Assembly (NCBI GenBank): GCA_964408215.1
Contig: CAYOYQ010000001.1
Coordinates: 4,059-68,058, forward strand
Length of the DNA: 64,000 bases
DNA from: an uncultured Eubacteriales bacterium
GTDB taxonomy: Bacteria > Acidobacteriota > Aminicenantia > Aminicenantales > Saccharicenantaceae
Reading direction: 5' to 3'
Within the stretch, counting starts at the first letter, position 1, and each line of letters starts with the position of its first letter. Of the stretch, positions 34,082 to 42,988 are shown in pieces. Below the pieces are notes generated by a model that saw only the letters and a program-made list of their open reading frames with translations, searched no databases and had not been told where the DNA came from. A program made the position numbers and the translations under genes.

Positions 34082-34840
34082 GTGTCCAGAAAGCAATGGC
34101 CGTTCATTCTTGCCGGGAGCGTCGGATCCTTGTTGGTCCTCTGGGTGGGTCTGGCCACTTTCGGATTTCCGGGTGATGACATGCTCGGAGCGGCCGGCCG
34201 ACCCGGCGGGGCTTCATGGAGATTCCACCTCGTCGTCGAGAGTGAAGGCACGATCGCCGGACAGGGCGACTGGCAAACGCAGCAGCTCCAGCCTTACCTC
34301 ATCCAGATCCGCCGTGCCGCCTGGACGGGGTTTTTCTGGCAAGTGAACACGTCCCGCAAGATCGTGGAAAAGGCGACCAACACGACGTTCGGGTCATTGC
34401 CCGTCAACCGCAAGACGCTGAATCCGGTCGTCAACGTCACCCCGCCGCCCGATGCGCCGGTGAGCTTCAACCTTCAATTCTCCAACGCCTATCTCGCTTA
34501 CTACACGTCCCAGGCCAAGGTCGCCGTCTACGCGCAGGTCGATTACGGGGAGAATCCCACCCAGATTTCGGATGGCCGCGATCTCGAGGTCAAAGAAGTG
34601 CGGTCCTACCTCTACCATATCCGGATCAAGGCCGGCCTCCCCGGGAACCCTCCCAGCAACTCGTTCTGGCAAGTGAACACGTCGCGTAAAGAAGTTGTGC
34701 GGGTCAAGAACGGGACCTTCGGCCAGATCGGCGGGACCCACGAGCCGACGGCGATGACCGTCACGGTCACCGGAAATCCGGAGGATCCCGCGAGCTTCGG
34801 CCTGAAATTCCCCAGGACCTATCTCTGGTGCGAGAAATGA
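34082..34840 (+). CDS. Hypothetical membrane-anchored protein with an internal repeat
   Basis: GTG start 6 nt after GAAGGAGG. 252 aa. Repeat FWQVNTSRK(I/E)V...N(T/G)TFG...V(N/T)VT...P(V/A)SF(N/G)L(Q/K)F occurs twice. Confidence 0.6.
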   Translation: MSRKQWPFILAGSVGSLLVLWVGLATFGFPGDDMLGAAGRPGGASWRFHLVVESEGTIAGQGDWQTQQLQPYLIQIRRAAWTGFFWQVNTSRKIVEKATNTTFGSLPVNRKTLNPVVNVTPPPDAPVSFNLQFSNAYLAYYTSQAKVAVYAQVDYGENPTQISDGRDLEVKEVRSYLYHIRIKAGLPGNPPSNSFWQVNTSRKEVVRVKNGTFGQIGGTHEPTAMTVTVTGNPEDPASFGLKFPRTYLWCEK

Positions 34841-37410
34841 GCCGGCCCCGGAGGATCTCCTCGCGAACGACGTCCTCCTTTGCGAGGCGCGCCGGGACCG
34901 TCGGCCTGTTCTTGGGGCTCGCCTGGGCCTTGACCGCCGGGGTCGTGCCTTGCGCCGGACAGCTCGTTTCGGTCACCATCGTGCCTTTTCACGACGAGAG
35001 CGACGCCGCCGCGCCGGGCGACCTGCTCGACAGGATCGGCCGAGACTTCAGACAGAAGTTGACGCTCTCCTATAAAGACCTGTTGCCCAGGTTCGTCGGC
35101 GCGGACGTTGTGCCGAACCCTGCCGCCGCGAGCCTCGGCGATCTCGCGGCGATCGGCAAGCAGCAGGGAGCCAAGTTCTTGGTGCGGGGCGGGATCCTGG
35201 CCATCACGTCGGAGAAGACAGGTTCGGACCTGAGCTGCAGTCTCCAACTCTTCGCCGATCTCGTCGACACCGAAACCCTGGGTGTCACGAGCTTGCGCAC
35301 CGACGGGGCGGGGATCGAAATCAATTCGGCCTTGGAGGACGCGCGGCGCTGGAACGCTTACACCTGGACGGGCCCCGAGTTCGCCCGGACCGCGCTCGGC
35401 CAAGCTATCGACGCGGCCCTGACGAGCCTGGCCGACCAGGTCCACGCCGCCATGTTCTCGCCCCCCGGCCAGGGGGCCGGCGGCCAGACGCCGGGCACAG
35501 CCGCGGGAGGGATCGATCCCTATCAGTCGGACCAAGAGATGCAGCAGCTCATGGCCCAAGCGGAGTCCCTGATCTCGAGCGCCTACGCGGCCAATCTCGA
35601 CGTCACTCCCCTGCAGCAATCGCTTGACGGGGTCCGGAGCGCCTTGGACAACAAGCTCCAGCTTCTCCAACAGGGCCTGGACGCGGCGGCCGCCGACCAG
35701 GACATCGCCGCGCGACGCTCGGAGCTCGAAAATCAGGTCAACAACTACAGCCAGCAGATCGCGGCCAACCCGCCGCCGGACATCGCCCCATCGTTCACCG
35801 GAGGAAAGGCCGACGGGATCACCCGGATCAACGGCCTCATCGAGAACGCGTTGGGCCTTCTTCAGAAGATCCAGGAGATCCGCCTGGCTTTTGGCAGTTC
35901 CGGCCAGGACCAAGGGAATTATCCGACGGAGGGACAATACGCCGGGGGCGATGAATTCTATCCCCCGACGGAGGAAGAGACGGGAGCCGCGAGCGGCGTC
36001 GTGACCGAGAACGGCGCTCCTGTCGAGGGCGCGACGGTCACCGACCCGGAGACCGGGCTGAGCGCGACCACGGACGAGAACGGCTCATTCACGTTGGGCG
36101 GCCTGCCGGGCGGACGCATCACGAACCTCCAGGTCATCCGGGGCGGGAAGCTCGTCGGCGTGACCCGGATCGCCCTCAGGCCCGGGCAAACGAGCATCTC
36201 GGACCTGACGCTGCGGTCGGGGTCCGGCGGTCTTCGGGCGATGGCCTGCCCAGTTGTGCCGTCGAGCCTGATCCTCTCGACCAAGCCCGGTCAGCCCGGT
36301 ACGGGACGCATCGTCGGAATCGTGCGTGACGGGCAGGGTCGGCCGGTTCCCCGGGCCCTGGTCTCGGTCAAAGGTGTCGGTGCGGTCCGCACGGATTCCC
36401 AGGGCCGATACATGTTCGCCAACGTCCCCGTTGGCGGCTATCAGCTCGCGGTGCAGCAGCCGGGCGGATCGCCCCAGCTCCAACAGGTCAGGGTCGGCGG
36501 ACGGCAGACGGCCTCAGCGCCGATCGTCTATCGGTCCAAAACCCCGCCCGCCGCGAAGACCGCCGTCGCGTCGGCGCTGGCGCCCGGCGAGAACACCCTA
36601 CTCAAGGGCCGGGTGACGGAAGGGAAGAACAAGGCGATCGGGGGGGCCAAGGTGACCGTGGTCTATCCCGGCGGGGCCCTCCGCGTCTACTCGAACAACG
36701 GCGGCGTTTATCAGGTCCGCAACCTCAAGCCCGGCAGCTACAAGATTCTCGCGGCCAAGCCGGGCTATGAGGGCGCATCCGGGACGGCCGCGCTTCAGAA
36801 GGGCAAGCCCTCGACCCTCGACCTCAAGCTGGCCCGGTCTTCGTCAGAGGCTGTTCAACAGGCCCTCGCCAGCCGGCAACAGAAGCAAGCGCCGCCGCCT
36901 TCGACCCCTCCCGGCCATCCTCCGGCCTTGACCAAGAAGATCGCGCCTCGCTCTCAGACCGAGAGCGTAACCAAGACGGGCAAGACGGAAAAAGGACAGG
37001 TTTCCCAAACGCCTGCCAAAACAGGGGACAAAACGAAGGGGGTATTGACGACGAAGCAAGCCAAGCTGGCGACCGGACCGAGCCGGGCTGTCGCGGCCGC
37101 GACGAGCGGAAGCGTGCAGGGAACGGTCACCGACGGGAAGACCAGAGGTCCCGTCGCGGGGGCCACGGTGTCGCTCAAGGGCAAGCCGAGCGTCCAAACG
37201 GACAGCTCGGGCCGGTACGGCTTCCGGGACGTCGCGCCCGGCTCTTATTCGATCAGCGTCAGGAAGACAGGCTACAAGAGCGGCGGCGGCGCCGTGACCG
37301 TCAAGTCCGGGCAGACGGCCACGGCCAACGTCACCTTGACGAAGGAGGAGGTTGCGAAGAAGATCGCGCCGATCAAGGCGCCGATCAAGAAGCATAACTT
37401 CGCGCCTTGA
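34837..37410 (+). CDS. Large exported protein: CsgG/TolB-N-like head, coiled-coil region, four carboxypeptidase-regulatory-like (CarboxypepD_reg) domains
   Basis: The ATG at 34837 overlaps the upstream TGA (ATGA). The head reads VSVTIVPFHDES...GAKFLVRGGIL. Four beta-sandwich units follow, of type G.V....G.PV.GA.V........T...G.Y.F..(L/V)..G.Y. Confidence 0.7.
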   Translation: MSRPRRISSRTTSSFARRAGTVGLFLGLAWALTAGVVPCAGQLVSVTIVPFHDESDAAAPGDLLDRIGRDFRQKLTLSYKDLLPRFVGADVVPNPAAASLGDLAAIGKQQGAKFLVRGGILAITSEKTGSDLSCSLQLFADLVDTETLGVTSLRTDGAGIEINSALEDARRWNAYTWTGPEFARTALGQAIDAALTSLADQVHAAMFSPPGQGAGGQTPGTAAGGIDPYQSDQEMQQLMAQAESLISSAYAANLDVTPLQQSLDGVRSALDNKLQLLQQGLDAAAADQDIAARRSELENQVNNYSQQIAANPPPDIAPSFTGGKADGITRINGLIENALGLLQKIQEIRLAFGSSGQDQGNYPTEGQYAGGDEFYPPTEEETGAASGVVTENGAPVEGATVTDPETGLSATTDENGSFTLGGLPGGRITNLQVIRGGKLVGVTRIALRPGQTSISDLTLRSGSGGLRAMACPVVPSSLILSTKPGQPGTGRIVGIVRDGQGRPVPRALVSVKGVGAVRTDSQGRYMFANVPVGGYQLAVQQPGGSPQLQQVRVGGRQTASAPIVYRSKTPPAAKTAVASALAPGENTLLKGRVTEGKNKAIGGAKVTVVYPGGALRVYSNNGGVYQVRNLKPGSYKILAAKPGYEGASGTAALQKGKPSTLDLKLARSSSEAVQQALASRQQKQAPPPSTPPGHPPALTKKIAPRSQTESVTKTGKTEKGQVSQTPAKTGDKTKGVLTTKQAKLATGPSRAVAAATSGSVQGTVTDGKTRGPVAGATVSLKGKPSVQTDSSGRYGFRDVAPGSYSISVRKTGYKSGGGAVTVKSGQTATANVTLTKEEVAKKIAPIKAPIKKHNFAP

Positions 37411-37426
37411 ACGATCCCGATCCCGC

Positions 37427-39379
37427 TTAATGGCCCTCGGCCTGGCCGGCGATGAGCTCGGCGGCCTTCTTTTGGACGTCGGGCGAACGGTCCGCTTTGG
37501 CGGCCTCCCGGATGAGGGTGAGGATCTCCGGAACGTTGCGTCCCGTTTCCCAGAGGTTCCGGAGGACCGCCAACCTAACGACCACCGATGCATCTTCTTT
37601 AAAGGACCTGATCTGGGCCTTCATCGTGACCGGCGTCGGCTCCCTGAAGCTGAGCCCGAAAGCCGCCTCCGTCCTGACCGACGAATCCGTATCGCTTACC
37701 AGCGCCTCGGCCAGAAGCTCGTCGGCACCCGGCGCCTGGACCCAACGCAAGCCCGAGGCGGCCACGGACCGGAGCGCCGTGGCGTCGCCCTTCAAGTATT
37801 GACGGAAAACGGGCAGGGCCAGGTCCGAACCCGAATTCCCCAGGGCCAGCAAGAGCAGCCTCGTCTTTTTCTTGGAGTCTGACCGCCCTACATCCGCAAT
37901 GATCTTTTGGACGAGGTCGGCCGCCCGGCCCGGCTCCGACGCCGCGAGGCCGTTGGCGATCATGCCGAGGGCGAGAGTCGCCACCGAAGCCACCTCCGGG
38001 TCCGACGCCTTCGCGGCCAGCTCGGCGACAGCGGCCTGAGTGGCGGGCGTCGCCGGCCGGCCGGAAAGCCCCAGGGACTGGATGATGAGCATGGTCGTTT
38101 TCGGAGGGACGGCCCCGTCCTCGAGGAGACCGACCAGGGCGGCTTGGGCCGGCCCGGTCCCCGCTGACGATAACGCCCCGATGAGGATCTGCTGCGCGGC
38201 GCTGTCGAGCCCTGCGGACGCGGCCCGCGCCGCCAGGGATCCGCAGCTATCCGGATGAAGGTAGACGAGAGCCTTGAACTTGAGATAAAGAGGGGTCGCT
38301 TCGGGCGCTTGGTCCGATCCGATCCGGTCCAGGGCCGCGAGCAGCGTCTCCAGCTTATCCTCTCCGAGGACGGTCCGCTCGATCGCCGCTTCCTGCTCCA
38401 TCTCCGGCAGGCCGAAGGAAAGCGTCTCGGCCGGGGCCCTGGCCAGTCTTTCCGCGCGGATCTGCCGCATCGCCGCGATGATCTCCGGCAGCACGGCCTC
38501 TTCGGAGCTGAGCCGCATGTCGATACCGGCGATGACCCTCCCGATCTCCGTTCCCGAGACGCTGATCGTCTGTGTCTCCTCGCCGACCGTTGAGAGGAGC
38601 CGCCCCCGCTTCACATCGAAGACGGCCTCCAGGCTTCCCTCAGGCTTACGCGTCTGGATCTGTTTCGGTCCGCCCGGGCCGGACGAGGCCGGCTGACTGC
38701 GGTAGCGGACCTTGGCCTTGCGGAAGACCTCGGCCCCGGTCTTCAGCTGTTTGGATAGCTCCCCGCCCCGGCCGGGCAGGACCTCGTAGCGCGCGATATA
38801 AGCGCCTCCCGGGTCGTCCTCGTCGGCTTCCCATCGGGTCATGTGCGGCCCGGACGTTCCAGGCAGAACGACCTGGGCCATCCCGAGCACGGCCCGGGCG
38901 TAGTTGCGGCAGACGCTTTCGACGTCGGGGTCGAACGAGACGGACGTCAGACGGCCCTGGGCTGACATCTCGGCGTAGATATCGAGACGGAGCGCCGCCC
39001 CGATGATCTCGGCTTGGGCGGCCTCCGGACGCCCGTTGACCGTCAGCTCCACGACGGGCTGCCGGAATCCGAAGGAGACGCGGAAGCCGTCGCCGGACCT
39101 TTCGATCACGGTCATGACCAGGTCGCCGGAGATCCGTGTATCGAAGGACTGGGTGACCCCCGCGGCCGACACCGAGCCGGCTTCGCCGGACCTCAGGCTC
39201 TCCAGGAGCTTACGGATATCGGTGGCGGAGCGGCTGGAGTAGTCGAGGCGATAAACGAGCGCCGTGCCTTCCTTGAGGTCATAGACGGGTCCCGCCGAGC
39301 GAGTGGGCCCGCAGGACGAGAGCCAAAGCGCGATCCCGATGACGGCGACGGCGCTGCCGTCGATCTTCCGCCGACGCAT
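37427..39379 (-). CDS. Lipoprotein with strand-rich N-half and HEAT/PBS-type repeats
   Basis: Start MRRRKIDGSAVAVIGIALWLSSC (lipobox) at 39379, 14 nt after the upstream stop. C-terminal repeats: DPEVASVATLALG, DATALRSVAASGL, DSSVRTEAAFGL, DASVVVRLAVLRNL, SPDVQKKAAELI. Confidence 0.65.
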   Translation of the reverse strand: MRRRKIDGSAVAVIGIALWLSSCGPTRSAGPVYDLKEGTALVYRLDYSSRSATDIRKLLESLRSGEAGSVSAAGVTQSFDTRISGDLVMTVIERSGDGFRVSFGFRQPVVELTVNGRPEAAQAEIIGAALRLDIYAEMSAQGRLTSVSFDPDVESVCRNYARAVLGMAQVVLPGTSGPHMTRWEADEDDPGGAYIARYEVLPGRGGELSKQLKTGAEVFRKAKVRYRSQPASSGPGGPKQIQTRKPEGSLEAVFDVKRGRLLSTVGEETQTISVSGTEIGRVIAGIDMRLSSEEAVLPEIIAAMRQIRAERLARAPAETLSFGLPEMEQEAAIERTVLGEDKLETLLAALDRIGSDQAPEATPLYLKFKALVYLHPDSCGSLAARAASAGLDSAAQQILIGALSSAGTGPAQAALVGLLEDGAVPPKTTMLIIQSLGLSGRPATPATQAAVAELAAKASDPEVASVATLALGMIANGLAASEPGRAADLVQKIIADVGRSDSKKKTRLLLLALGNSGSDLALPVFRQYLKGDATALRSVAASGLRWVQAPGADELLAEALVSDTDSSVRTEAAFGLSFREPTPVTMKAQIRSFKEDASVVVRLAVLRNLWETGRNVPEILTLIREAAKADRSPDVQKKAAELIAGQAEGH

Positions 39380-39393
39380 CCCGCTCAGCCCGA

Positions 39394-42300
39394 TCAATAG
39401 CCCGAGAACCACTTGTAAAGGAGCTTGTAATCGTCCTTGCCCAAGTGGAACAAGAAGAACTTGCGCGTGGTGGGGCAAACGGTGGGACCCCTGTCCGATT
39501 TCGTATTGCCCTTGATCTCTTGTTCGTCCAACCAGACGATATCGACGCTGCTGAGGCGCTGCTTCTTCTGCCCGTACTGGCCGGAGCCGCCTCCTCCGCC
39601 TCCTCCCGAAGTCGAAGCAACGCTGCCCATCTCGCCGAACCGATAATGGATGCTGGAGTTCGAGCGCCGGTAGACGATGATGATCTGCTCGCCGGCGACG
39701 CCGACGGCCGGGCCGTCGGTCGACGAGGAGCCATCGACCTTGGTCTCCTCGGTCTCCTCAGGCCCCCATTTCCCCGAGGGGTCGAGGTAGCGGTAATAGA
39801 TGTCGCTGTTGCCGGATCCGCGATGGAAGACGTAGAGGCGGTCGCCGAACGCGCACGCCGCCGGGCTCGCCAGAGCCTTGACGTTCCCCGGGATGAGCTT
39901 CGTTTCCGTGAGGACGATGTCGGTCGTCTTGTCGACGCTCAGGATACCCGGCCTGAACCTCAAATAATTAATGCCCTTGCCCCCGGATTGGACGAAAAAG
40001 AGATATAGCTCACCTTTATAGACGGCGGCGGCAGGGCGGTAGTAGGAGGCTCCCGGGAGCTGCTGGCCGATGGGGTTTTCCGGCCACCATTTCCCGGAGG
40101 AGTCCATGTAGTGATAGTAGATGGCCCAGTCCGGCTGCTTGCGGTTCCCCATCCCGGCCGGCCAGCCGGCGTGAAAGAGATAGATCCGATCCCGGAAGAC
40201 GACGGCCACGGGCGCGCTGCAGGTCACGATGGGGTACGGCTTGAGAGTCGTATCGACGTTCCCGCCGAGCCTCTGCTTGATAGTCCCGTATTGGCTGCGG
40301 CCGCCTCCGCCGGGCTGGGCCGCGGCCCCGGTCGTCCCGGGCTCCTCCGTCTCGACGCTGGTCAGCACGGCCGGATCGAGACTCGCATATTGGATCGTCC
40401 ACCCGTCCAGCCAGAAAGCGTGGAGCTGGCCGTTGAACTCGGCGACCGACGGCGCGAAGACGCCTTTAGACGTATCGTTCAGCGGGAGAAGACAACTCGT
40501 CCCGTAGGGGTCCCAGGTCACGCCGCCGGAGCCCGAGGGCTTGAAGGTCCCGCCCGAGGGGCCGCCGAGCGCTCCGCCAGTGAAGATGTCCCAACTGCCG
40601 GTGACGGGGTCGAACAGGTCGCCCGTGGCCTTCCACCCCTCCCAGCTGATAATGTCCCAGTCCCAGCATTTCTTGTGCCACGGCGGGATATCGAAGGCCG
40701 GGACATAGACGCAGACATAGACACCCAAGCTGCCGCTAAGGGCCTGGAATTCATCGTAGAGGCGCAGGCTATAGGCGATCTTCAGGGAGCTCTCGCCGGC
40801 CTCGAGCTCGCCGATCAAACCCACGCTCCCTTCGAGCACGAGCGAGTTGTTGATCAGGGTCAAGGTGACCTTGACCCCGGCCTCCACGATCAGAAGGCTG
40901 ATGCCGGCGCTGGCGTAGACGTCCGCCCGGACGTAGGGGCCGAACCTGGCGCTGGCGCCGAGAGGGCTGAGATAGATCCCGCCTTCGATCCCGGCCGCGG
41001 CGCGGACGCCGGCCCTTAGGGTGATGACGAACGGACCGATGGGGATCGGCGTCGTATAGGACAGATCGAGGGACTTCTCCCACCGTTCCGTGGCCTCCCA
41101 GTGAGGCAGATCGACGAGCTTCGTCGTGCTCGAATAGGTTTTAGTGGGACAGTTGATGAGATCCCGGGTGGCCATACCGGCGATGTAGAGCGTGACCTTG
41201 GCGCCCATCTCTCCGCCCGGCGAGGGCGCCGTGGCGTTGCCGTCGACCCGGATGAGGGCGAACTTGTTGTCGAAAACATAGCCGCCGGCCTCGGCGTGCG
41301 CTTTGAGCTGGATGTTCCCTCCGGCCTGCACGGCATTGGTGCCCGGAATGGCATAAACGCCGGGCTTCTTGCCCGAGAGCTCGGCGGACCCCTCGAGATA
41401 GATGGCGAAGAGGTCCCTATCGCCGAGGGTCGGCAGGTCCGTTGAATATTCGTATTTGAAGTCGTTCCCCGTTTGGTCCGGCGCTGGCGGAGGAGGAACA
41501 TAGCCGCTCGGTGAAAGAGGGGGCGGCTCCTCGGACCTGTCCTTGATCAGCCGCTGCAGCCGGGCCCGGTCCGCGCTCTGCTGCTTCAGGTATTGCTGCT
41601 GAAATTCGGCGGCTCCCAAGGGCTTGGCGATGGACAAGCGGCGGTGGCGGCCGATGAAATCCTGGCCGGCCTTGCGGACCTGGGCGGCTTGGGCGGCGGA
41701 GAACCGGGTCTCCTGGAGCTTGGCCCCGGGGCTCGGGTCCCGGCGGACGTCGAGGGTGTAGCCGAGGGCGTTGAACTGGCTCTCAAGGATATTGAGGTCG
41801 TTGTAGTAGTCGGCAGCCCGCATGGTCTTCCCGTTCGGAAAAGGAGGCAGCACCGCGTCGGGAGCGATGGCGTTTCCGTTCCGGGGGTCCACGACCGCGA
41901 ACGGCTGATAGGCCAAGGGCTGTCTTCGGTTGACCAGGATCCGGGCCGTCTTGAATTGGGCGTTCCTGACGGGCAGGAGGCTGTCCACCGGCTCCCCGAC
42001 ATAGGGGAGGTGGCCTTTTTCCGCCGCCGAACGCTGGAGCTGTGACTGGAGGCTCCAAACGACCGGTCCGGTGTGCAATTGACCGACCGCTTGCGCTTGG
42101 GCTTCGCCCGCGACAGGCGGAGGGGCGGATGCCTTCGAGGGTTGAGCCTTGGTCGTCGCCGTCCTGGCTGCGGTCGCGGTGGCCTGCCGGGCCTGTGGAG
42201 TGCCCGCCGCCACATCGGACGGCGCGGGAAGCCGGATCGTCACCTGGACCTGGGCTGAGCCGGTCCCGAAATTGACGACGCTGAGCCGCCAGGCGCTCCC

Positions 42301-42690
42301 TTTCGCGAGAAGGGCCGCATTGATGTCAAAGGCCAGGACGAGCGGGCTTGTCCCGTCCCGGCGGGCGTAGGCCTGGGCTTGACCGGGACCATTGAGGATC
42401 AGGGCCAGCTTCGGAGCCGAGCCGGTCCATTCGGCTCGGGCCTCCAACTTGCCGGCCGCCGGAACCTGGACGTCGATGTCCGTGCGCCCGTTGGCCTGGA
42501 GCGCGAACGAACGGGAGGCCGTGCCGGCCGGCGGCGGCGCTGCGGACTGGGCTTTCTTGGCGCTGACTTGGCCACCGGCGGCGCCGGGCCCGTAGGCCCC
42601 CGAGATGGCGAGGGCGATGCCGAGGGCCAACAAGGCCAGGTAGCGCCCCAAGGACTTGGCCATGGATTCCCGCTCCGTTTTGGTTTCCAT
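39394..42690 (-). CDS. Giant secreted hypothetical protein: beta-sandwich head, strand-rich core, six-repeat propeller-like tail
   Basis: About 1098 aa from METKTERES (AAGGAGA RBS); ATG at 42705 or 42663 are alternatives. Signal peptide LALLALGIALAISGAYG. Domain details are in the findings. Confidence 0.7.
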   Translation of the reverse strand: METKTERESMAKSLGRYLALLALGIALAISGAYGPGAAGGQVSAKKAQSAAPPPAGTASRSFALQANGRTDIDVQVPAAGKLEARAEWTGSAPKLALILNGPGQAQAYARRDGTSPLVLAFDINAALLAKGSAWRLSVVNFGTGSAQVQVTIRLPAPSDVAAGTPQARQATATAARTATTKAQPSKASAPPPVAGEAQAQAVGQLHTGPVVWSLQSQLQRSAAEKGHLPYVGEPVDSLLPVRNAQFKTARILVNRRQPLAYQPFAVVDPRNGNAIAPDAVLPPFPNGKTMRAADYYNDLNILESQFNALGYTLDVRRDPSPGAKLQETRFSAAQAAQVRKAGQDFIGRHRRLSIAKPLGAAEFQQQYLKQQSADRARLQRLIKDRSEEPPPLSPSGYVPPPPAPDQTGNDFKYEYSTDLPTLGDRDLFAIYLEGSAELSGKKPGVYAIPGTNAVQAGGNIQLKAHAEAGGYVFDNKFALIRVDGNATAPSPGGEMGAKVTLYIAGMATRDLINCPTKTYSSTTKLVDLPHWEATERWEKSLDLSYTTPIPIGPFVITLRAGVRAAAGIEGGIYLSPLGASARFGPYVRADVYASAGISLLIVEAGVKVTLTLINNSLVLEGSVGLIGELEAGESSLKIAYSLRLYDEFQALSGSLGVYVCVYVPAFDIPPWHKKCWDWDIISWEGWKATGDLFDPVTGSWDIFTGGALGGPSGGTFKPSGSGGVTWDPYGTSCLLPLNDTSKGVFAPSVAEFNGQLHAFWLDGWTIQYASLDPAVLTSVETEEPGTTGAAAQPGGGGRSQYGTIKQRLGGNVDTTLKPYPIVTCSAPVAVVFRDRIYLFHAGWPAGMGNRKQPDWAIYYHYMDSSGKWWPENPIGQQLPGASYYRPAAAVYKGELYLFFVQSGGKGINYLRFRPGILSVDKTTDIVLTETKLIPGNVKALASPAACAFGDRLYVFHRGSGNSDIYYRYLDPSGKWGPEETEETKVDGSSSTDGPAVGVAGEQIIIVYRRSNSSIHYRFGEMGSVASTSGGGGGGGSGQYGQKKQRLSSVDIVWLDEQEIKGNTKSDRGPTVCPTTRKFFLFHLGKDDYKLLYKWFSGY

Positions 42691-42988
42691 CGTTTCTCCT
42701 TTCATGCTCCCATTGAGGGGCTGACAGGATCACGACGACAGATCGATGAGGGATCTTGCAGTTCCGACTCCCCTGGCTGATAGGATTGTTATATATTGGG
42801 CGAGGCGATGTCAAGAGACATCGAACGGGCGGCCTGGAATGTTGAGAACTCCCGTCCCGCTGAGCGCGGCGGTCTCCTGACGAAAACGGCCAACGGCCCT
42901 TTCCCCGGGGTTTACGGAAGCGTCAATGACTCGAACGGCGACGAGACGCGCTCATGAGGAGGCCGCGTCCGGGCCTGTCCGGCCCGGC

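Follow-up and report, generated by a model that had tools for sequence, protein, structure and literature searches.

Large lipid transfer proteins (LLTPs), which include vitellogenin, apoB, MTP and the apolipophorins, are central to lipid transport in animals, and their barrel-plus-helix fold is usually regarded as animal-specific. We analyzed a stretch of 64,000 nucleotides (the window) from an uncultured Eubacteriales bacterium placed by GTDB in the Acidobacteriota (assembly GCA_964408215.1, contig CAYOYQ010000001.1, positions 4,059 to 68,058 of the forward strand), and describe in it two adjacent genes, here called gene 1 and gene 2. The gene 2 protein is, in its predicted structure, LLTP-like in fold and is a member of PF01347 by Pfam's criterion. 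The gene 1 protein is built around a strand-rich core whose family lies outside Pfam and NCBIfam, and the two genes occur side by side in many bacteria.

In human MTP, a barrel (residues 21-297) is followed by 17 helices (residues 298-603) and by a C-terminal domain of 280 residues, in which the lipid is held by two sheets of six strands each (PMC6717300). The cryo-electron microscopy study of honeybee vitellogenin connects the rise of LLTPs with multicellularity in animals (PMC12214520). LLTPs go unmentioned in a 2019 survey that covers bacterial homologues of eukaryotic lipid transfer proteins, and our full-text literature searches turned up no publication on LLTP or vitellogenin-N homologues in bacteria. 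The module therefore appears to be undescribed, as had been proposed in an earlier annotation of this DNA that was made from its letters without database searches (the sequence-only reading).

Both open reading frames were confirmed on the minus strand, where together they span 37427-42705. The gap from the stop codon of gene 1 to the start of gene 2 is 14 nucleotides. Export signals are present in both proteins, which agrees with the secreted, co-directional two-gene module of the sequence-only reading. The two coding regions and the parts of gene 2 are as follows (pLDDT, predicted local distance difference test score).

39394..42690, minus strand: gene 1, 1098 amino acids plus stop codon, with the ATG at 42690 as the likely start
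37427..39379, minus strand: gene 2, 650 amino acids plus stop codon, a predicted LLTP-like (vitellogenin-N-like) probable lipoprotein
39311..39379, minus strand: signal peptide of gene 2 with lipobox L-S-S-C23, read from the sequence
38495..39265, minus strand: predicted 11-strand beta barrel of gene 2, residues 39-295 (AlphaFold, pLDDT mostly above 85)
37430..38488, minus strand: helical solenoid of gene 2, residues 298-650 (PF01347, HEAT_2, hhalign)

We modeled gene 2 with AlphaFold using an alignment of 18 sequences. The model has a mean pLDDT of 83.7, and the barrel in it is followed by a solenoid of about 20 helices (residues 298-649) with PBS/HEAT-type repeats in the C-terminal half of the protein and the motif LLLLALGNSG. 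This accounts for the strand-rich N-terminal half and the HEAT/PBS repeats that had been read from the sequence. When the model was compared with PDB structures using Foldseek, the nine best matches were all LLTPs (E 3.8e-17 to 4.3e-9) and represented four subfamilies: MTP (6i7s, 8eoj), lamprey lipovitellin (1lsh), honeybee vitellogenin (9ens, 9enr) and apoB100 (9ea7, 9e9r, 9bd8). The apoB barrel of 9bd8 is among them. These alignments extended over about 430-750 columns and covered the full length of gene 2. The next class of match, designed alphaRep HEAT proteins, began at E 1e-5.

Sequence comparisons pointed in the same direction with less force. Gene 2 scored 39.5 bits against PF01347 (Vitellogenin_N, lipoprotein amino-terminal region), for which the cut-off is 24, and also matched HEAT_2; the precomputed PF01347 assignment was present in 15 of 17 homologues. 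We then used hhalign to compare gene 2 with human MTP, represented by a query sequence that is 100% identical to PDB 8eoj_B and aligned with orthologues that, among those listed, are mammalian. The helices of gene 2 aligned with the helical domain of MTP at E 2.6e-4 (183 colinear columns), the two barrels aligned colinearly and weakly (E 0.037), and residues 113-552 of gene 2 aligned with residues 113-535 of MTP at E 1.5e-3, over 389 colinear columns that cross the junction between barrel and helices. The gene 2 family profile matched MTP at 16.5-17 bits, near LLLALGNAG in the family and LLALKNAL in MTP. Because the match in fold and the PF01347 assignment are accompanied by a weaker link in sequence, we regard gene 2 as having an LLTP-like fold and as belonging to the Pfam family. 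The earlier statement that neither protein belongs to a named family thus fails for gene 2, which aligns over its full length to MTP, lipovitellin, vitellogenin and apoB, and stands for the core of gene 1. There were no matches to gene 2 in NCBIfam, PADLOC or PHROGs, and bacterial relatives of both genes are labeled in the databases as "HEAT repeat domain-containing protein" or "hypothetical protein".

The domain order and domain sizes of gene 2 are those of the LLTPs: its barrel occupies residues 39-295 (21-297 in MTP) and its two-layer helical solenoid residues 298-650 (298-603 in MTP), and the boundary between the two, at 297/298, is common to gene 2 and human MTP. The LLALGN region of gene 2 corresponds to LLALKN of MTP, and gene 2, too, is exported. 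MTP forms a heterodimer with the separately encoded PDI; the obligate partner of gene 2 is instead a novel strand-rich protein. Gene 2 differs from the LLTPs in being bacterial, in being probably lipid-anchored, and in having helices that are PBS/HEAT-like in sequence, and lipid binding is something that we only infer here. The cavity formed by the A- and C-sheets is missing from its chain: there was no match to PF09172 or PF19444, and nothing follows the last helix, the chain stopping at residue 650. Gene 2 thus lacks the cavity-forming sheets by which a complete LLTP is defined. The other known proteins close to gene 2, PBS-type HEAT proteins (HEAT_2; the phycocyanobilin lyase CpcE/F, NblB and designed alphaRep proteins), match residues of about 500-650 strongly, with E-values down to 6e-30 for the alphaRep designs. 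In contrast to gene 2, they are cytoplasmic and have no N-terminal barrel, and they cover only the last quarter of the protein.

The N-terminus of gene 2, MRRRKIDGSAVAVIGIALWLSSC (MRRRK...LSSC23), contains a canonical lipobox, L-S-S-C23, that fits the pattern [LVI][ASTVI][GAS]C. As read from this motif, gene 2 is probably lipid-anchored via Cys23. Close relatives have L-W-S-C at this position. Some distant relatives have no cysteine, so not every family member would be lipidated, and the earlier description of gene 2 as a lipoprotein probably holds for the window and not for all relatives.

We found that the core gene followed by the LLTP-like gene is the arrangement at every informative locus, in at least nine phyla. 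There were 28 independent loci with both genes, which confirms that the pair is conserved in relatives, and the loci that lack one gene are cut by contig ends. The association was recovered from either side. Two loci found through homologues of gene 1 (L001 and L002) have a PF01347/HEAT gene directly downstream. At three loci found through homologues of gene 2 (L004, L005 and L006), the upstream genes encode proteins of 920, 591 and 502 amino acids that align to residues of about 240-700 of gene 1 with E-values of 4e-139, 2e-30 and 2e-43, respectively; those of L005 and L006 have neither the propeller nor the head that gene 1 carries in addition to its core. A scan with the gene 2 alignment, taking one genome per species, gave 22 loci. 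The core was detected by tblastn directly upstream in the 20 that have upstream DNA, and the contig ends before the upstream region in the remaining two. Three proteins consisting of the core only (P0034, P0172 and P0103, at L033, L034 and L037), which came from an independent profile search, are each followed by a PF01347/HEAT gene of 648-681 amino acids, and the contig of a fourth is cut off at its end. The spacing of the two genes is tight at other loci too, with 5 nucleotides at L001 and an overlap at L005. As judged from sequence, both proteins are exported and the pair is strictly syntenic.

The hosts are mainly free-living soil and freshwater bacteria. They include cyanobacteria (Calothrix, Rivularia, Brasilonema, Scytonematopsis), Nitrospirae, Acidobacteriota (Blastocatellia, Terriglobia), Planctomycetota, Clostridia/Eubacteriales, Geobacter, Deltaproteobacteria, Bdellovibrionales, Bacteriovoracaceae and Oligoflexus. 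Clustering of the open reading frames at 27 loci revealed no third conserved gene. Some neighbors are specific to single loci: a gene of the CsgG family (curli-type secretion channel) lies directly downstream of the pair in a soil metagenome (L034 8595-9833, also L035), and a secretin gene and glycosyltransferase/PilZ genes lie near the pair at L006. The pair is also carried by two named isolates rather than metagenome bins, Calothrix sp. CCY 0018 (L013) and Brasilonema bromeliae SPC951 (L015). Because these two hosts are cultured, experiments are feasible.

The part of gene 1 that is shared by these loci, its core, comprises residues of about 240-700 and consists of the following segments.

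41731..41973, minus strand: most conserved core motif, residues ~240-320 (family alignment consensus; detected with tblastn at almost every locus)
41491..41703, minus strand: variable helical or Pro-rich linker, residues ~330-400 (model helices 332-349 and 360-385; poorly conserved in the alignment)
40576..41448, minus strand: strand-rich amphipathic core, residues 415-705, ending in the motif PPW...C...W.W..W.G (the Trp/Cys knot of the sequence-only reading, with Cys660 and Cys675)

A word-indexed search with gene 1 found eight relatives. When 1.84 billion representatives were searched exhaustively with a profile, 2874 proteins reached E <= 1e-3, a number that includes domain-only matches. 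The best 150 of these 2874 sort into three independent modules, corresponding to the core, the head and the propeller. The core (profile positions ~240-680) is the commonest module, and the whole core is present in at least 101 proteins. Homologues that contain only the core are secreted and typically have about 450-520 amino acids, and nearly all of them have Sec signal peptides; other family members carry accessory domains, namely the propeller, the jelly-roll head, the Ig-like N_BRCA1_IG or Kre9_KNH. Neither gene 1 nor the core of its relatives, 66 of which were compared with Pfam, gave a significant match in Pfam, NCBIfam, PADLOC, PHROGs or the sequences of the PDB. The core thus represents a sizeable family outside Pfam and NCBIfam that would be worth defining.

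The conserved motif at the start of the core is a short alpha/beta motif of 70 residues with the consensus R.PI.F.PF...DP.TGK.I.P....TLPNGK...A..YY.ELN.LE...N.LGYSL. The strand-rich segment has about 14 long strands in the AlphaFold secondary structure (residues 427-701). We asked how polar residues are distributed on these strands in 66 family sequences. In 10 of the 14, one face has at most 2% polar residues and the other 37-57%. The apolar faces consist of hydrophobic residues and Gly, Ala, Ser and Thr. Mean-field direct coupling analysis of 124 core sequences (effective number, Meff, 111) was too noisy for topology; the only couplings that stood out were Cys660-Cys675 (rank 7) and a few antiparallel ladders. 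Because these two cysteines covary across the family, a disulfide between them would fit an exported protein. We found no internal repeats in the core when a beta-solenoid or curli-like build was tested. We also considered the core as an outer-membrane beta-barrel and rejected this, because a terminal aromatic beta-signal is missing; the apolar faces, Gly/Ala-rich and with few large hydrophobic residues, likewise argue against such a barrel. The window protein continues for 400 more residues C-terminal to the core, and the ends of core-only relatives vary, many having added tails.

Gene 1 of the window has four further features outside the core.

42589..42690, minus strand: Sec-type signal peptide, residues ~1-34, hydrophobic core 16-29 (sequence and predicted helix 16-29)
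42226..42525, minus strand: accessory head, a beta-sandwich of residues 56-155 that resembles a pre-peptidase C-terminal or jelly-roll domain (AlphaFold, Foldseek)
39397..40488, minus strand: accessory six-blade beta-propeller, residues 735-1098 (AlphaFold, Foldseek, self-hhalign)
40242-40364 and 39499-39630, minus strand: Gly-rich inserts, residues ~776-816 and 1021-1064

The AlphaFold model of gene 1 was built from 7 homologues. All parts of the layout that the sequence-only reading had described are present: signal peptide, sandwich head, Ala/Thr/Pro linkers (disordered in the model), strand-rich core and six repeats. Among the Foldseek matches listed for this model, only the propeller and the head are represented. 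The head has eight strands (residues 57-153, pLDDT 70-83) and superposes on the jelly-roll C-terminal domain of the Tk-SP subtilisin (3afg) with a root-mean-square deviation (rmsd) of 2.1 Å over 99 columns (E 4e-5). It differs from that domain in having no Pfam PPC match and no attached protease. The same head occurs by itself in numerous secreted proteins that are otherwise unrelated and carry LRR, VWD or CARDB domains, and tblastn did not detect it in most loci that carry the core and gene 2. P0008 has only the head in common with gene 1, and it has no gene 2 neighbor. P0060, a protein of 1082 amino acids in the representative library, combines a homologue of the head with fn3, VWD (type D of von Willebrand factor) and CARDB domains. 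VWD is also a domain of vitellogenin, which may be a coincidence.

The propeller is formed by 24 strands in six groups of four (residues 748-1096). Comparison of residues 735-1098 (the last 364) with themselves by hhalign gave off-diagonal matches with E-values as low as 6e-29. The six repeats are thus statistically genuine, and their earlier interpretation as a propeller is borne out by the model. The assignment to a hemopexin or lectin type is not. Foldseek matched the last 360 residues of gene 1 to generic five- and six-blade propellers (GH43 arabinofuranosidases and sialidases/neuraminidases rather than lectins; E ~1e-6, target-normalized TM-score ~0.5), and there was no match to a named lectin or hemopexin family in Pfam or NCBIfam. 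The gene 1 propeller differs from these and from propeller lectins in having no Pfam hemopexin, Kelch, BNR or lectin match and in being accessory to the module. Its distant repeat relatives are large multi-repeat proteins with weak matches to DUF6242, Kelch and Fungal_lectin. Within the family, the propeller is confined to the clade of the window and to L001, L002, L004 (on the same contig as L023), L011 and L012. Two similar Gly-rich inserts, PGGGGRSQYGTIKQRLGG and GGGGGGGSGQYGQKKQRLSS (GGGG.SQYG..KQRL), interrupt blades 1 and 5. They are restricted to the close clade of the window, with P0007 having them in part, and the model shows them as disordered. Because the head and the propeller are missing from most family members, both are accessory and lineage-specific. 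This does not support the earlier view that a binding propeller on a strand-rich body is the logic of the system.

We tentatively favor a reading to which we give somewhat less than an even chance: that the operon produces an extracytoplasmic two-protein complex in which the sheets of gene 1 complete the LLTP-like scaffold of gene 2 for the binding of lipid or of some different hydrophobic cargo. In this reading, gene 2 would serve as an exported, probably membrane-anchored scaffold of barrel and solenoid that ends where LLTPs continue into their A- and C-sheets. The amphipathic sheets of gene 1, whose strand-rich core of about 290 amino acids is similar in size to the 280-residue A/C-sheet domain of MTP, would dock onto this scaffold, and the docked pair, in effect a split LLTP, would enclose an apolar cavity and bind or shuttle lipid or another hydrophobic component of the envelope. 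The lineage of the window would have gained the jelly-roll head and the six-blade propeller, which probably would anchor the complex to a ligand at a surface, for instance a glycan, or direct it there. The module is best described as a split bacterial version of a known fold, combined with an undescribed family and with a putative function. A conserved bacterial module of barrel and solenoid would give the LLTP superfamily prokaryotic relatives or analogues and would provide a small two-chain system in which the holding of lipid by this scaffold could be studied. It would also suggest that cyanobacteria, Acidobacteriota, Nitrospirae, planctomycetes and predatory bacteria have an envelope function that is still unstudied. 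The bolder proposal, that a barrel-plus-solenoid lipoprotein and a separate amphipathic-sheet protein assemble into an extracytoplasmic lipid carrier, we regard as rather doubtful. If true, the fold of vitellogenin, apoB and MTP would be older than animals or would have been transferred between bacteria and animals, and bacteria would own an unrecognized class of envelope lipid transfer beside Lol, Mla, Lpt and AsmA/RBG.

Several results weigh against the split-LLTP reading. By sequence, the helices of gene 2 match PBS/HEAT designs much more strongly (E 6e-30) than MTP (E 0.01), and the homology of gene 2 to LLTPs consequently rests mainly on predicted structure, in a model whose predicted template modeling score (pTM) is 0.52. 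In the model of gene 1, residues 370-728 have a pLDDT below 50; because the core fold is not resolved by the model, the two-chain lipid-cargo reading is one that we infer. The core-family profile found nothing significant among PDB sequences. PF09172, the vitellogenin open beta-sheet, was matched by one of 66 core members at E 0.062, which is at the level of noise, and hhalign of the core with MTP's C-terminal domain gave E 0.09 over 6 columns, a negative that carries no information because the MTP profile contained mammals only and the positive control was itself weak. No fusion of the gene 1 and gene 2 proteins was seen, and the clustering of open reading frames at 27 loci showed no conserved lipid-metabolism genes near the pair.

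The LLTP likeness could itself be due to convergence or be an artefact of modeling, gene 2 being a plain HEAT lipoprotein with an unrelated barrel and some other function in the envelope. The TM-scores of 0.46-0.58 to LLTPs (query-normalized up to 0.58), at an rmsd of 8-10 Å, would fit this, as would the modest pTM and the weak sequence signal from MTP (17 bits, and E 0.037 for the barrel alone). We consider this explanation quite improbable, given that the window protein and 15 of 17 homologues pass the Pfam gathering threshold, that the nine top PDB matches, which represent four subfamilies, are all LLTPs and agree with gene 2 in domain order and boundary, and that the hhalign match is colinear over the barrel-helix junction. 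If the LLTP-like shape is accepted, it could still serve protein-protein contact only. The pair would then be a module for surface display, with gene 2 as an anchored HEAT scaffold that presents gene 1 as an adhesin or as a protein associated with the matrix or S-layer, and no lipid would be involved. This is unlikely in our view, although it is the more probable of these two explanations. The strong PBS/HEAT matches in the C-terminal half of gene 2 are typical of a protein-binding scaffold, the accessory domains of the core family (propeller, jelly-roll, N_BRCA1_IG, Kre9_KNH) are extracellular binding modules, and the product of the neighboring gene at 34828-37410 is large and secreted, has four CarboxypepD_reg domains and partly matches an anammox S-layer family. 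However, that neighbor is not kept at other loci, and bare cores without a binding domain make up the majority of the family. A display scaffold also leaves unexplained both the full-length, LLTP-specific match of barrel and solenoid and the polar-free face of the core strands.

The sequence-only reading had proposed the role of a secreted toxin, pore-forming or adhesive, for gene 1. Its hairpins would insert into a membrane and its propeller would bind the target, and gene 2 would be its chaperone or immunity protein. Long amphipathic, Gly/Ala-rich strands in the core and the secretion of both proteins are what such a toxin would show; homologues occur in the predatory lineages Bdellovibrionales, Bacteriovoracaceae and Oligoflexus, and the accessory domains vary as they do in polymorphic toxins. 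Most members, however, have no targeting propeller, and the hosts are mainly free-living soil and freshwater bacteria, cyanobacteria included. There were no matches to toxin, defense or phage families in Pfam, NCBIfam, PDB sequences, PADLOC or PHROGs, and no mobile-element or polymorphic-cassette context was seen. The partner, about 650 amino acids long, always present, strictly conserved and LLTP-like, would be unlike known immunity proteins. We therefore regard this proposal as very unlikely, the least probable of the alternatives to a split LLTP.

The longest open reading frame of gene 1 (39394..42705) has 1103 amino acids. The ATG at 42690 is the likelier start because there is an AGGAG 7 nucleotides upstream of it, because a promoter-like site precedes it, and because database gene calls begin there; the database protein P0001 has 1098 amino acids and is 100% identical to gene 1. 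One site with the promoter-like consensus is present, compared with 0.6 expected by chance. The two genes are probably co-transcribed. A megablast search of the region against plasmids gave no match. Features of the window outside the two genes are listed below.

42785..42814, minus strand: promoter-like site TTGACA-18-AACAAT, upstream of gene 1 (consensus match only)
34828-37410, plus strand: gene for a secreted protein of 860 amino acids, convergent with gene 2
34082-34840, plus strand: open reading frame of 252 amino acids
49684-49780, plus strand: tRNA-Ala(GGC), 97 nucleotides, unusually long (ARAGORN)

There was no match in the window to Rfam at the gathering threshold, so the 97-nucleotide tRNA-Ala(GGC) may be a false positive. 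The partial match of the 860-residue protein is to the Kustd1514 anammox S-layer glycoprotein family (E 1e-24), and this gene is specific to the locus. The open reading frame before it has no Pfam match and contains an internal duplication (FFWQVNTSRKIVEKATNTTFG and SFWQVNTSRKEVVRVKNGTFG), and its end overlaps the start of the gene for the 860-residue protein by 13 nucleotides.

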